DNA of 64,000 nt from Eledone cirrhosa (taxonomy: Eukaryota): contig OZ024746.1 of NCBI GenBank assembly GCA_964016885.1, forward strand, positions 25,792,001 through 25,856,000, in the 5' to 3' direction. The stretch's first letter is position 1; the number at the start of each line of letters is the position of its first letter. The notes beneath the pieces were generated by a model. That model searched no databases and had not been told where the DNA came from. It worked only from the letters and a program-made list of their open reading frames with translations. The position numbers were made by a program, and so were the translations under genes. Below are positions 2,448 through 56,113 of the stretch, piece after piece.

Positions 2448-2526
2448 CTCTCTCTCTCTCTCTCTCTCTCTCTCTCTCTCTCCCCCCCTCTCTCTCTCTC
2501 CCTATATATATATATCGTAGAATCAA

Positions 2527-2621
2527 GACGTATCTGAGGATCTTGCGATTTCAGAGTCAGGTTCGATCATTGCATTGATCATGCCTCGAGCTGGTCGCCA
2601 GAGAAACGATTGTAATATGTC
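2527..2621 (+). ncRNA. Type I hammerhead ribozyme motif (minimal stem III) in a ~157-bp insert within (TA)n
   Basis: Stem I GACGTAT/ATATGTC; core CTGAGGA 2534-2540; stem II TCTTGCGA/TCGCCAGA (1 mismatch) with a long internal hairpin; GAAA 2603-2606; stem III ACGATTGT; GUA cleavage triplet 2612-2614. Confidence 0.8.
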
Positions 2622-3477
2622 TAATAAATTTTATATTTTATTCGTTGCAGCATTGATTCTCCGTTTCTTATGTGATATATATATATATATATATATATAT
2701 ATATATATATATATATATATAGAGAGAGAGAGAGAGAGAGAGAGAGAGCTGGCCTGGTCAAGGGAGACAGAGAGAGAGTTTGTGAATTTATAAATATTTA
2801 CACATCTTTTAGTTATTATTTATCAAATTTACAACCAAAGAATTTCATTATTTTCTCACTTCCTGGCCATTATTAACAATTTTGAAATTGTTGTTGTTGA
2901 CTTTTAAAACAAGCAAGCCATGCTTAAGATTCGATATTTAAAAATTTATAATAAATTTCAAACATTTGTGTAGCCTCTGGAAAATTGACTAGCTTGAGAA
3001 AACATAGAAAAGAGGAGTGGTAGAAGTTATTCAATTATCGACTGATGAATTAAATCATTAAAAAATAATACAAATATAAATGAAAAACATAAGTAAAAAA
3101 AATATATAACATACATATTAATTAAATAATATAAAAGATAAAATTATTTCTTGGGGTGTCAACAACTGTTTATTCCTCATTATGCCTTTCAGCAGGAAAT
3201 CATCCAAGAAAATGTCAGCCAGTTACTGTGTTTTTAAAATAAGTCTTGCTAGGTATTTTTGTTAACCATTCCTGATAAATATATAAGATAATATTTAAAG
3301 TCTCAAGGCCTGAAAGATAACATGAACTGAGAACTAAAAAACAAAATAAAGTTGTTTATTTGTTAGGTTTTCTTAATGTTCCTGTCAAAATATATTTATT
3401 TAGTTATATATAATTCACATTTGAAAATAGTCTGTTTTATTTCTATTAAAAGAACTTTGTTTGACAGAAACCAGATA

Positions 3478-3740
3478 TTAACCATTCATTACCATATTCT
3501 TAATGAGAGATGCTGTCTTTGATTTTCAAATGATTTTGAAAGTTATAAAGAATTTGGAAGGATTTAGTGATATAACTAACTTTTGTATCATTAATTTTAT
3601 ATTTAGAACATAACTTAACAAATGTTCTTATATAAAAGTATGATGGAAGTTTTTAGATTAACATAAACTCTTTAAAGATAAGCATTTGTGTATTACAGAA
3701 CCATGGGTAGTTTCAGGTGGACTAGTATCAAAAGGGTTAA
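3478..3740. mobile_element. piggyBac-like MITE (family 2)
   Basis: TTAA-ccattc...atcaaaaggg-TTAA; related copies at 11099-11360, 36414-36625, 57318-57727 and about 62140-62326. Confidence 0.6.
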
Positions 3741-3769
3741 ACTTTATAAGCTCTAATGTATCCCCAGGG

Positions 3770-4148
3770 TCAATGGGAAGAGGTGTGATAATGTAGCCGT
3801 TTGCCATTGGGCAAGAGATTAGATGCCTCATATTGAACACAACTCTTAGGTTGTGGGTGTCGGGTGGCAGTCACTATATCTGTAGCCAAATGGAATAAAC
3901 TACTGAAATACTGTGATATATCAATAAACTATGTTTTTCTGCCTATGACATTCAAGATGTTTAGAGGACTGGACTGTTGACAACAAAGTTCTTGTCATTG
4001 CTGGTGGCTCATCTTACTGAAGTATCTGGTGATGCTGGTGAGAGTACTTGGCTATTCCAGCACATTGACCTTGCTATCACCTGGCCTTATTGAAGTACCA
4101 GGGAATGCTTGTGAAGGTGCTTGGCTTTTCCAGTAGCCTTGCTTTAGG
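3770..4148 (+). mobile_element. CRE-like non-LTR retrotransposon C-terminal restriction-like endonuclease remnant
   Basis: Degenerate translation GKRCDNVAVCHWAR ... KLLKYCDISINYVFLPMTF ... LLVAHLTEVSGDAGESTWLFQHIDLAI, compared with the family pattern GKRPDGxTxxPW..KxxKY..YxFxPxAxET..GDxRExxWLxQRxxLA. Confidence 0.6.
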
Positions 4149-4389
4149 TAGAAGATTTTTTAATTATATATATATTTTATTTACATAAATATTGTCAAAG
4201 TGTATGCCTTAAGAAAACATTGTAAAGTTAGACAAAATGATAATATTTAAAGGAAAAAAAGGAAAGGGAAAGAAGAAAACAAAAAAGAGAATGAAGCAGT
4301 GAATGAAAGGGAAAGATTCTACATGATAGAAGGATAGACTCTATATGAATACACAACACAGAATGGAACAAATATCATCAAGCATCTAA

Positions 4390-4700
4390 GAATTCTGCCA
4401 ATCCACTGCCATGAAGTTGTACTTTAATTTATTGATCTCAAAAGGATGGAATATAAAGTTGATTGTGGCAGAATTTGATCACAGACCACAAAGTTGCAGA
4501 ACAGATGCCACAAGGTATCATCTTATCCAATATACTAAGAATTCTGCCAATCCCCTGCCATAAACTGACACTTTATTTAACAACCATAAAATGATAAAAA
4601 CTAAAATTGAACTCAGCAGGATTTGAACACAGAGAGCAAAGAGACAAAGTAAATGCCATAAGATTTTCTATCTAAGATTCTAACAATTACACCATTATAT
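4390..4700 (-). mobile_element. Two degenerate tandem tRNA-head SINE copies (family A)
   Basis: Reverse B box gatttgaac/gaatttgat, attctgccaatcc head and aaaggatg...aaagttga body. Confidence 0.6.
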
Positions 4701-5477
4701 CATAAATTTGCCTTGGTATCATAATTTAATTTCCTTTCTGCTGTTCTAACTGAAATATTTTATCTTGACAACTGTAACTGTACATGGCTTGCAGCACAAT
4801 TCTTACAAGTCATTCATCTTTACTCCCTTACTCCCTAAAAATCTATTCTTCATTACACATACACACTTACACACATGCATATATCATACACATACTCACA
4901 CACGTTCTCCTTACATACATGTGCAAACAACATTAAACTTTAATATTTTTTCATTGAAAATAAATCGAACAGCCACCCACAACATTTCCCAGGTTTTTCT
5001 CTGAGGCCCATCTCCTATGGACTGCCCTTGATAATGGATGGAAAATCCCAAAATATTTGGGATCATCAAAAATTGCTAAGATAACTTTCTATCGTCCTCA
5101 CTCTTATTTCAGTTCAATGTTTTCATTTTATTACTCTACCTACTTATTTCTTAGTCATATTTGTAACTCATATTCCACAATGTTTCAAGGAAACTACAAC
5201 ACCTTCTACACACACACACACACCCATATATATATATATATATATATATATATATTCTCTTTATATATGTTCTCTTTTCTTTTTGTTTTCTTCTTTTTCT
5301 TTATCTATCTCTCCCTTTCTTTTCTCCACGTTTCTCTCTCTCTCTCCATCTTTTTACTTACTCTTAACACTATGACTTACTAAAGTAAACAAATCACTAT
5401 CCTGATGGCCTCCAAAAACAATGGTCAATTTTTAAAAGGGGTACGTCAATGTCTATTTATAAAACTGTTATATATTG

Positions 5478-54058: not shown

Positions 54059-54072
54059 GCAACAGACCTTAC

Positions 54073-54149
54073 CTTTGGGATGTGTTAAAAACTAATTAGA
54101 CCAGGTGAAGTTGAACTGATTTTCTATCGATCACCTTAGAAGCAGGAAC
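54073..54149 (-). other. Candidate 77-nt spliced exon (probably non-coding/UTR)
   Basis: Minus strand: (CT)n-ctag|GTTCCTG...CCCAAAG|gtaagg. Strong acceptor and donor bracket unique sequence; all three frames contain stops. Confidence 0.4.
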
Positions 54150-54644
54150 CTAGAGAGAGAGAGAGAGAGAGAGAGAGAGAGAGAGAGAGAGAGAGAGAGA
54201 GAGAGAGAGAGAGAGAGAGAGAGAGAGAGAGAGACCCGTCATTCTATTGCTGACTTCTCAATGTAATTGTTATTACTGTAGGAAGAATCATGACAGTGTA
54301 ATTCTTTACAACTCCTACTTGCCATTCTGATTTACAATTAAACCCAATACAATCACAAGATTTATGTAGCAAGGAGAATCTCTTTATAAAATATTCTTTT
54401 GCTCTTTTATTCTTTTACCGGTTTCACTCACAATACTGCGGTAATGCTGTGGCACTGCCTTAAAGGGGATTTAGTCTATCATATTGACCCCACCGCTTAT
54501 GTTTTCAAACCTGTCACTTATTTTATTGAACACTTTTTGTCAAACTACAAAAATTACATGACATAGACACAAATGCAAACATAAACACAAACATGGACAC
54601 ACACACATATAAATATATACATATATATATATATATATATATAT

Positions 54645-54955
54645 ATTGAGCTTGCAATCAAAAGGTTGTGAGTTCAATTCTCAGACCGGGTAATGTGTTG
54701 TGTCCTTGAGCAAGACACTTTATTTCACATTGATCCAGTTTACTCAGCTGTAGAAATGAGATGATAGGGACTGGGGTCCCTATCATTCCACTGCAAAGTG
54801 GTCGTGGAGGTGCCACGGCAAAAAAGCACCCAGCACTCACTGTAAATGAGGTTGGTGTTAGGAAGGGCATCCAGCTGTAGAAATCAAGCCAGAATCAGTT
54901 CCCGTCCCACCCTTGCAAGCAGGGAAAAGTGGACGTAAATGATGATGATGATGAT
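54645..54955 (+). mobile_element. Family-C head SINE with RTE-type tail
   Basis: gagttcaattc..tgtgtccttgagcaagacactttatttcac..; 54790-54900 is nearly identical to 51660-51815. Confidence 0.8.
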
Positions 54956-55544
54956 ATATATATATTCCACCATTGCTAGCAGGGAAATTGGACATTAAAA
55001 CAACAATGATGATATATATATATGTATATATATATATATATCAAGATTCTATCCATTATGTATATATACATCAAGATTCTACACATTATATATATATATG
55101 TACAAAGTAGTGTATAAAAAACTTGGCCATAGTGGGGCTGAACGCCAAATTATGCAAAGCTAATTCCCTCAGTGCCACACCAACCATGCTCCTATCTCCT
55201 TCCCACCCACTCTAATCATCTCCATTCTTAGTCCAGCTAAGGACACAATAATTGCATTAGTGTTAATGCCACAGTGGAATGCATCAAGTGCAATCTGTAA
55301 AGTGGTAGTGCTGGTGCCATGATAAATGACACCCATCCCACTCTATATATTAGCAGTCTTCATGTTACAATCAAATGTACCTAGCACGCTCTGTAAAGTG
55401 GTAGTGCTGGGGCCACACTAACATGCATCCAGTACACACTGTAAATTGGTTAACATTAGGAAGACATTGCACCTAGAATGTTCCCCTCTGAGGTTGTCTA
55501 AGGAAAAGGAAACTTCTGATACAGCTTGGCACAAGTGATGTCAC

Positions 55545-55740
55545 AACTCATTTCTAAAGTTGAGTAAAGTGGTGTAACATGAAATAAAGTGTCTTGCTCA
55601 AGGACACAACACACTGCTCAGCCCAGGAATCAAACTCACAACCTGATGATTTGAAACCCAATGCTCTAACTACTAAGCCATGTGCCTTCAATACTATATA
55701 TATCATCCTCATCATTTTACGTCCGCTTTTCCCTGCTAAT
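55545..55740 (-). mobile_element. Family-C SINE head plus a short RTE-type tail
   Basis: tgaaataaagtgtcttgctcaaggacacaac..aactactaagccatgtgccttc; ttttacgtccgcttttccctgct. Confidence 0.75.
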
Positions 55741-55928
55741 GTATATATATATATATATACATATATATACACATTAGGTATTATATATGCTATACACATA
55801 TTATATATATATATATATATAATATATATATATATATATATATATATATATATATATATATATATATATATATATATATATATATGTTGTATACTTTGGT
55901 TGCATAGCACACAACTTAATAAAAATCA

Positions 55929-56113
55929 AAATTAACAACGAACATGAATGCTAATAACATGCAAATTAGTATATCCATTTAAGTGATACTACTATATATA
56001 GATACAAATACATAACTAAGAGGCTTATTGTATGCCCTATCACATATAGTAGTAACACTGAAATGGATGTACTAATTTGCATATTATTAGCATTTCTGTC
56101 GGTAGTTAATTTT
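55929..56113. repeat. Imperfect inverted repeat (~70-bp arms) between two (TA)n tracts
   Basis: aatgctaataacatgcaaattagtatatccatttaagtgatactactatat vs atatagtagtaacactgaaatggatgtactaatttgcatattattagcatt. Confidence 0.85.

Follow-up and report, generated by a model that had tools for sequence, protein, structure and literature searches.

Short inserts that hold predicted hammerhead ribozymes, some of them folded back on themselves, are scattered through a 64,000-nucleotide stretch of the Eledone cirrhosa genome (hereafter the window; contig OZ024746.1 of assembly GCA_964016885.1, positions 25,792,001 to 25,856,000). We consider it probable that these inserts are the short 3' ends of Penelope-like element (PLE) families, four of the Hydra clade and one probably of Neptune type, together with two retrozyme-like units, each family having its own predicted type I hammerhead, and that the foldbacks arise when a TA tract is cut and its two ends are both extended on RNA of one source, from two fixed start sites. 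The hammerhead itself appears to be carried along, its cleavage site not setting the ends of the inserts. The elements are of a published kind, since Hydra PLEs that carry hammerheads and target (TA)n are in print, as are inverted ends tailed on one side only. What is added here is the pairing of one long with one short arm, with matching variants in the two arms, as well as a fixed 5' end in one family (family B) and the density of the motifs.

Six motifs in the window match a type I descriptor that combines the core CYGANGA...GAAA, stems I and II and a self-complementary stem III, with cores at 2534, 5486, 34137, 48037 and 52246 on the forward strand and at 47648 on the reverse strand. All six have the C3-A9 and G12-A14 segments, the three stems and the NUH site expected of a hammerhead; the cores at 47648 and 48037 are U4C variants with an A.G pair at the base of stem II, and stem II of the motif at 2534 is 62 nucleotides (nt) long. 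When the window was shuffled 100 times, with dinucleotides preserved within 1-kilobase (kb) blocks, the mean was 0.03 motifs and the maximum 1, and the strict CTGANGA core, present in four window motifs, did not occur in any of the 100 shuffles. A first-pass annotation of the window had claimed six motifs at five complete-core loci, of several unrelated families and mostly in or beside (TA)n. The count is correct, the coordinates given there being stem I starts; the frequency is higher than in dinucleotide-shuffled sequence (six versus 0-1); and the families are indeed several and unrelated, with every window motif belonging to a multicopy family. Proximity to (TA)n holds for five motifs, which lie 20-250 nt from the nearest (TA)5, but not for the one at 34137, which is 4,769 nt away. 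Dropping the palindrome rule yielded one additional weak window match at 26603, and another weak match at 34654, which surfaces only when a U3-A8 core is permitted, was taken as chance. Among 59 matches obtained without imposing a palindromic stem III, 46 had a self-complementary one anyway (33 perfect and 13 with one mismatch), the remainder being odd in length (11) or non-palindromic (2); the reversed-sequence control gave a single match. The monomer folds of five window motifs are unremarkable (z -2.1 to +0.9), and no hammerhead family occurs among the 150 of 212 Rfam matches that were listed, where only microRNA (miRNA) matches to simple repeats are seen.

Where do these short ends come from? 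Candidates were collected from the 3.0-gigabase assembly, the first look giving 1,737 for family A, 899 for B, 2,762 for C, 1,368 for D, 638 for E, 4,514 for F and 400 for G, of which 40 each were scored; stretches extracted around matches are labelled with L and a number. Judged from their sequences, families A (47648/48037), B (52050), C (2534) and D (5486) are the 3' ends of Hydra-clade PLEs whose frames for reverse transcriptase (RT) and GIY-YIG endonuclease lie elsewhere in the genome. The clearest parent is that of family D, in which an intact 743-codon RT and GIY-YIG frame stands directly behind the same pseudo-long terminal repeat (pLTR), with an inverted arm upstream (L303); a 117-residue piece of this RT has 27,707 first-look candidates, with 150 scored matches at 93-100%. 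Family A has as its parent a tandem unit of 4.15 kb, whose RT and GIY-YIG frame is frameshifted in the copies inspected. For family B, an RT-endonuclease frame, also frameshifted, lies about 1.3 kb upstream of the hammerhead (L298), and in L327 the start of the open reading frame (ORF) follows the tail, i.e. lies downstream. Family C copies share upstream sequence over about 2.2 kb, back to the end of a Hydra-type endonuclease, which is the only coding part seen; ORFs adjoining this family in L064 and L306 were considered as its parent and belong to other elements.

The coding frames agree with the clade in most of their motifs. Near the N-terminus, A, B and D have RWR rather than the RWK of the octopus element Hydra-1_Obim (for A as read from DNA), and all three have DKT in place of DKG (by alignment in B and D, read from DNA in A) and, by alignment, the CxCX5C linker. 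CCHH is absent, and CxxC..E..N..CxH is present in A, D and the C end, the B frame in L298 breaking off earlier. The Hydra-1_Obim protein from the published supplement agrees by eye, motif by motif, with the B and D frames, and the atlas neighbours of Hydra-type frames include GIY-YIG, RVT_1 and HTH_animal families at partial shares. Families A-D also have the hammerhead in the pLTR and the (TA)n insertion of the Hydra clade. They do not have its usual length of less than 3 kb, unit A measuring about 4.15 kb and the 3' untranslated regions (UTRs) of B and C 1.2-2 kb, a limit that PMC8557442 presents as a tendency and not as a strict criterion. A tblastn search with four PLE-type proteins from other genomic loci gave no RT or endonuclease match in the window, in agreement with the first-pass statement that no such PLE ORF is present there. 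The PLE or retrozyme-like origin proposed in the same annotation is well founded, with five of seven families traced to PLE coding sequence and two being retrozyme-like. Its idea that pseudo-LTR-only copies are deposited as a special class has to be abandoned: A, B, C, D and F continue 5' into UTRs and RT/endonuclease frames, and the copies are ordinary 5'-truncated or inverted 3' ends of autonomous elements. As further observations on PLE frames, Asn-rich insertions similar to those of rotifer Penelope elements separate RT and endonuclease in the A and D frames (L032 4390-4940), and several loci (L306 3700-2180 on the reverse strand, L359, L367, L065) contain a PLE of another type, in which the GIY-YIG is C-terminal but the Cys-rich linker differs, and which we take to be possibly Nematis-like.

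The inserts of families A-D end at one of two 3' positions. Counted from G12, these are about +58 and +225 in A, +42 and +125 in B, +65 and +145 in C and +65 and +150 in D. In a blind sample of 40 evenly spaced 10-kb stretches (400 kb), 34 of 40 arm ends of A, B and D abut TA, against a background of 11%; for C (0 of 2) and F (1 of 3) the matches in this sample are partial or old. To count pair types we used loci chosen on one arm or on the shared part and not on the type of partner, and excluded arms without either end. Over all examined loci, after de-duplication by sequence, 175 of 180 head-to-head pairs consist of a long and a short arm, whereas only three are long with long and two short with short. 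The rule holds for 140 of 143 pairs of B, 11 of 11 of A, 11 of 13 of D and 13 of 13 of C, and in the window the A, B and H foldbacks obey it and the G foldback does not. In addition, the two arms carry the same variants: in a sample of 68 B inserts, 52 of which have both arms covering the diagnostic region, the three-site haplotype matches between arms in 52 of 52 pairs, including two singletons, whereas shuffled partners match in a mean of 20 and a maximum of 33. In 53 of the 175 pairs the 5' end of the short arm lies more than 8 nt beyond that of the long arm, and in 24 it is the long arm that extends further; for the 53, copying of one arm from the other as DNA is thus impossible in either direction. 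There are also pairs without overlap (L011, L273), and solo arms end at either site. Taken together, the pairing rule and the matching variants likely reflect two reverse-transcription starts on one RNA source.

In such a mechanism, an enzyme of the element would cut a TA tract, priming would take place at the distal (tail) site for one DNA end and at the proximal site for the other, with a single RNA source serving both, and the two complementary DNAs (cDNAs) would run toward the RNA 5' end, stopping early or at the end. Joining of the two by microhomology would then give a head-to-head insert without an ORF. In family B, where transcription would start within stem II, priming near the RNA 5' end would produce run-off copies of 60-145 nt that hold half a ribozyme. 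Much of this has a biochemical precedent in PMC11167929: there, a PLE protein in purified form was found to cut AT-rich DNA on both strands, to extend both and to start reverse transcription at two internal RNA sites bounding the tail; it uses uncleaved RNA, does not need hammerhead cleavage and is predicted to be a dimer. The long-plus-short rule with matching variants connects the two in vitro start sites with the opposite ends of a single insertion and yields a sharp prediction that a reconstituted assay could address; young families with intact frames are available here for it. We put forward only tentatively the joint proposal that a PLE enzyme pair uses one RNA molecule twice, with one subunit priming each end, that the one-long-one-short inverted insert is the basic PLE product, and that family B starts inside stem II. 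If true, the B messenger RNA (mRNA) would begin with a catalytically dead half ribozyme, only tandem read-through RNA would hold a whole one, run-off copies of the first 145 nt of the B mRNA would have been sown about 10^5 times, and the genome would have about 2 x 10^5 hammerhead motifs, among the densest reported.

Several observations weigh against this reading or parts of it. The two arms have 5' ends within 8 nt of each other in 98 pairs (B 91, A 3, D 3, C 1), and their concordance could also be explained by one dominant source locus per period or by repair between arms after insertion; moreover, a single RNA molecule and two RNAs from one source locus would look alike in sequence. The 3'-to-3' foldbacks of family G are not produced by the proposed two-end priming, and no coding parent was found for E, G or H. 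With regard to the Hydra-clade assignment, this is made by motifs and by-eye comparison with published proteins and not by an RT tree, and Pfam recognised no RT or GIY-YIG family in three parent frames. A sequence search of the PDB gave one chance-level match, and the AlphaFold model is poor (mean predicted local distance difference test score of 46). The near-equal 5' ends are what would be expected if the inversion arose by self-priming, with a tail-started cDNA folding back at its 3' end and being copied as DNA to the short end, or with an antisense template priming itself, as for rotifer PLEs. This idea, proposed earlier from junction palindromes (PMC3846280), would also explain why the two arms have identical variants and why hairpins stand at the centre of some foldbacks, as at the family A junction in the window. 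We nevertheless regard it as unlikely for the inserts as a whole: in 53 of 175 pairs each arm has something that the other lacks, 5' sequence in the short arm and the tail in the long one, there are pairs with no overlap between the arms, either site can also be the end of a solo arm, and extension of both strands at two sites has been partly shown for another PLE (PMC11167929). Snap-back copying fails for those 53 pairs but may account for the equal-end pairs.

A further possibility, to which we assign a distinctly lower probability, is that the short inserts are independent non-autonomous elements, either hairpins resembling miniature inverted-repeat transposable elements (MITEs) or retrozymes that would spread as circular RNA released by hammerhead cleavage, and not truncated PLEs. 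This fits families E and G, with their units of about 310 and 370 nt, their junction copies and their lack of a coding parent among the loci found, and short copies of B far outnumber long ones (the 5' core is found in 20 of 359 arms, the sampling having favoured short copies). In the case of A-D and F the idea is already refuted, as these families continue 5' into long UTRs and RT/endonuclease frames and have fixed, unpermuted 3' ends, and their 5' ends are not piled up at the cleavage site. Finally, it is scarcely credible that AT-rich repeats produced the motifs by chance, or that the foldbacks are artefacts of assembly or amplification. Foldback chimeras are a known artefact, and one minisatellite gave 16 false descriptor matches in the blind sample; set against this are the 0-1 matches in shuffles, the 59 matches versus one in reversed sequence, the 16,425 exact copies of a 31-nt B word versus none of its reverse, and asymmetric arms that end at two fixed sites.

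Family B differs from the others at its 5' end. The first-pass annotation had described a half core at 52046-52093, and the motif at 52050 is confirmed as the 3' half of a hammerhead within the window, but the parent of the family carries a whole one. Most B copies begin inside stem II at a fixed site. Long copies (among them the parents in L298 and L327) have stem I, a core of the U3-A8 type (TTGANAA) and a stem II of 54 nt; position 7 of the core takes G, T, A or C, stem II changes look by eye to be compensated between subfamilies, and the predicted minimum-energy fold of the parent has the hammerhead shape. An early search pattern demanded a G that is missing from long copies and selected truncated copies, and a pattern with gaps limited to 34 nt passed over the 54-nt stem II. 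The long copies with hammerhead and ORF rule out a self-standing, parentless element of 135 nt. The 31-nt word mentioned above is preceded by G in 2,770 copies and by A, C or T in 13,655. Among 38 incidental arms, from loci extracted for other families, 22 have their 5' end at -23 to -16 relative to G12, 13 end further 3' and three further 5'. Similarly, of the first 30 non-G pattern matches, 19 end no more than 4 nt from this position and the other 11 lie beyond the interval of 5-37 nt, in which there are none. At the site itself, 19 of 20 long copies have TTAGT or TCAGT, which resembles the initiator consensus.

On balance, we lean towards the fixed 5' end of family B being a transcription start inside stem II of the hammerhead, which, if true, would be a simple way to keep the ribozyme off the 5' end of the mRNA. 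The scattered 5' ends of families A and D, which have no fixed one, speak against it, as does a TATA-like stretch 29 nt upstream of the B site that is missing in one subfamily, leaving no conserved TATA box. The rival account, a stall of the RT or a cut in the RNA within the structured stem II loop, we find less likely, even though the site lies within the 3' strand of the predicted inner stem II hairpin (minimum-energy fold) and the TATA-like motif is not conserved; in this context, the Penelope element of Drosophila virilis is described as having a TATA-less internal promoter. A stall would be expected at the foot of the stem, about 5 nt 3' of the observed peak, and the initiator-like TTAGT/TCAGT is kept across subfamilies with otherwise different loops. 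An extra G before the start, considered as a copied cap, was not established, given that the partner arm or TATG flanks can supply a G; B arms with the extra G number 2,770, versus about six with an A at this place in the first 100 of 13,655.

Is the window exceptional? In the same blind 400 kb, we relaxed the descriptor to admit U3-A8 cores and a longer stem III and obtained 44 matches, or 28 after removal of the 16 from the minisatellite, with 0-1 in each of six shuffles. This corresponds to one motif per 14 kb genome-wide, compared to one per 11 kb in the window, and by extrapolation to about 2 x 10^5 motifs. The earlier figure of about one motif per 10 kb is therefore accurate for the window, and the high density it was taken to indicate, at one per 10-14 kb, also holds; however, the window is typical of the genome and not a local cluster. 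A preference for (TA)n is seen here as well, 12 of the 28 motifs lying within 150 nt of (TA)5 versus 19% of positions. Family B alone has 27 arms in the same 400 kb. Published counts of minimal motifs are 2,000-9,000 per genome with another descriptor (PMC4209133), and up to 120,000 hammerheads are reported in axolotl; differences in method preclude a detailed comparison with ours. The 400-kb sample (L339-L373) contains a dozen or more mutually unrelated stem sequences, several with U3-A8 cores (TTGATAA, TTGAAAA) and often as opposite-strand pairs.

The remaining families have other origins. Family F (52246) probably ends a decayed PLE of Neptune type: it runs back into an endonuclease frame upstream of the pLTR that is decayed and has stops but shows CxxC, YI, R and H residues, and weak RT-thumb matches are present in L397 and L401. 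The name Neptune follows motif patterns that we assume to be diagnostic, Nematis and Poseidon being alternatives. Families E and G are old, non-coding, AT-rich units of about 310 and 370 nt, with copies that are 70-85% identical. Copies spanning a 3'-to-5' junction were found for E in 5 of 19 other loci and for G in L149, L165, L435, L438 and L444. A small non-coding unit, a type I hammerhead and head-to-tail permutation, as in retrozymes, are thus combined in both, and they appear to resemble non-LTR retrozymes in their working. We do not class them as members because no complete dimer was seen, two complete consecutive units being absent from 20 E loci and the examined G loci (3-kb loci, best matches only). 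The exact-word count for family E was zero, which is uninformative for copies that are 75-80% identical. Family G has a hammerhead that its window copy does not include; its foldbacks are 3'-to-3' in the window and in L430 (1414-1881) and head-to-head in L442 and L446, and the 3'-to-3' arms could reflect an antisense template or inversion at the DNA level. Family H, which forms a fourth foldback in the window that the first-pass annotation missed, is common (66 match rows in examined loci) and has a motif resembling a hammerhead (CAGAAGA...GAAA), which the window copy holds in degraded form.

How do these elements compare with known systems? The closest is the Hydra clade of PLEs with a C-terminal endonuclease, including Hydra-1_Obim (PMC8557442), with the same RT and C-terminal GIY-YIG, RW(K/R), DKT, CxCX5C, CxxC and CxH without CCHH, and the same hammerhead, (TA)n insertion and tandem and inverted arrangements. 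According to that paper almost all families of the clade insert into (TA)n and carry hammerheads, its supplement lists both for Hydra-1_Obim, and the origin of the tandem and inverted PLE structures is an open question. The published families are few and generally shorter than 3 kb, with tails of 30-40, whereas the families here have a 4.15-kb unit in A, 3' UTRs of 1.2-2 kb, tails of about 80-170 nt and very high copy numbers. The minimal type I hammerheads of metazoan PLEs described in PMC4209133 have the same short or long stem II, palindromic stem III and U3-A8 variant, and likewise occur mostly as solo copies and as opposite-strand pairs 100-700 bp apart; by comparison, family B has a real stem III of 5-6 bp and is mostly inserted as a half ribozyme, and 28 motifs are present per 400 kb. 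The Poseidon element PAc of green anole shows in vitro the same two RT start sites bounding the tail, cutting and extension of both strands and AT-rich targets (PMC11167929). For PAc, however, the start site is equal on both strands and the sites are not tied to insertion ends, while our pairs are almost strictly one of each. Inverted pLTRs of Penelope elements in Adineta vaga and D. virilis are the same kind of head-to-head, 5'-truncated copy with a one-sided tail and junction palindromes (PMC3846280, PMC8557442), but are described as optional or frequent, in few copies, and explained by antisense self-priming; here, 180 pairs were counted. Non-LTR retrozymes (PMC7229834; bioRxiv 10.64898/2026.07.22.740005) share with E and G the non-coding, AT-rich unit of about 300 nt, the type I hammerhead and the head-to-tail junctions, whereas E and G are seen only as monomers and partial dimers, are old, have some PLE-style inverted arms and are known here from their sequences. 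An octopus repeat annotation reports recently active Penelope-like families, its main text not using the words 'hammerhead', 'ribozyme' or 'Hydra'. A count of pair types, arm concordance, a start inside a hammerhead and a census of cephalopod hammerheads were not found in the literature searched, outside which lie most subscription papers and the supplements of PMC11167929. For genome annotation, the inserts explain numerous short hairpins lying in TA tracts, which have weak scores as miRNA precursors or could be filed as MITEs or short interspersed elements.

Along the window, the first insert is a 5'-truncated short-end copy of a Hydra-type PLE of family C (2515-2675, forward strand), with (TA)n on both sides and the hammerhead with the 62-nt stem II at 2526-2622. 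It is followed by a similar copy of the young Hydra PLE of family D (5268-5582, forward), which ends in (TA)n and has its hammerhead at 5478-5542, with stem III ATATATAT. Away from (TA)n lies one old, circularly permuted, retrozyme-like unit of family E of about 310 nt (34025-34332, forward; hammerhead 34130-34176). The H foldback at 47208-47378, delimited by eye from its flanks, joins a long-tail arm on the reverse strand head-to-head to a short arm on the forward strand, without overlap and between TA runs, and has a degenerate hammerhead-like core. In the Hydra PLE foldback of family A, a long arm with a 167-nt tail (47396-47848, reverse; hammerhead 47606-47652, core CCGAAGA) and a short arm (47837-48122, forward; hammerhead 48033-48079) overlap at a natural 12-nt hairpin, and the short arm is followed by one extra TTTCATA repeat and (TA)n. 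Family B contributes a long arm with a tail of about 80 nt, a short internal deletion and only the 3' half of the hammerhead (51933-52056, reverse), and a short arm (52051-52105, forward) that comprises the 3' strand of stem II, GAAAC, stem III with a GAGCTC loop, the GUC site and the 3' strand of stem I, and ends in (TA)n. Next to it is the 3' end of an old, probably Neptune-like PLE with a CxxC/CCHH-type endonuclease (family F, 52137-52372, forward), with (TA)n on its 5' side and a minimal hammerhead at 52242-52277 whose stem III is ACGT. Finally, two pieces of the old, circularly permuted family G unit of about 370 nt meet 3'-to-3', the left at 55886-55996 (forward), with the family hammerhead outside the piece, and the right at 56006-56121 (reverse). 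Of the three foldbacks noted in the first pass, all are inverted, but those at 47563 and 52003 are larger than described and asymmetric, and that at 55929 has no hammerhead and its arms are 3'-to-3'. The foldback at 47563-48122 has 278-nt arms that are 99% complementary, its left arm extending on to 47396, and the left arm of the one at 52003 extends to 51933.

The short 3' end of family A is often lengthened, ahead of the TA run, by 1-3 additional repeats of its final 7-9 nt (window 48116-48135; L008, L010, L017, L020, L029, L034), which resembles repeated priming or slippage at the start site. Families are also stacked in one TA tract, with H beside A (47208-48152) and B beside F (51933-52372) in the window and similar cases at many other loci, and each insertion seems to leave TA runs that act as new targets. 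Outside these inserts, a 499-codon frame at 26485-27984 on the forward strand has a YADD-type RT motif and a weak zf-RVT match (E 0.0014, below the cut-off); it is not of PLE type and is presumably the 3' part of a long interspersed element of the L1/Tx1 type. An 8-kb array at 37571-45577 comprises 222 copies of a 36-nt unit with 96% match, one of its frames being open over 2,699 codons, and further arrays are located at 12942-14037 (53-nt unit) and 15372-20231 (43-51 nt).

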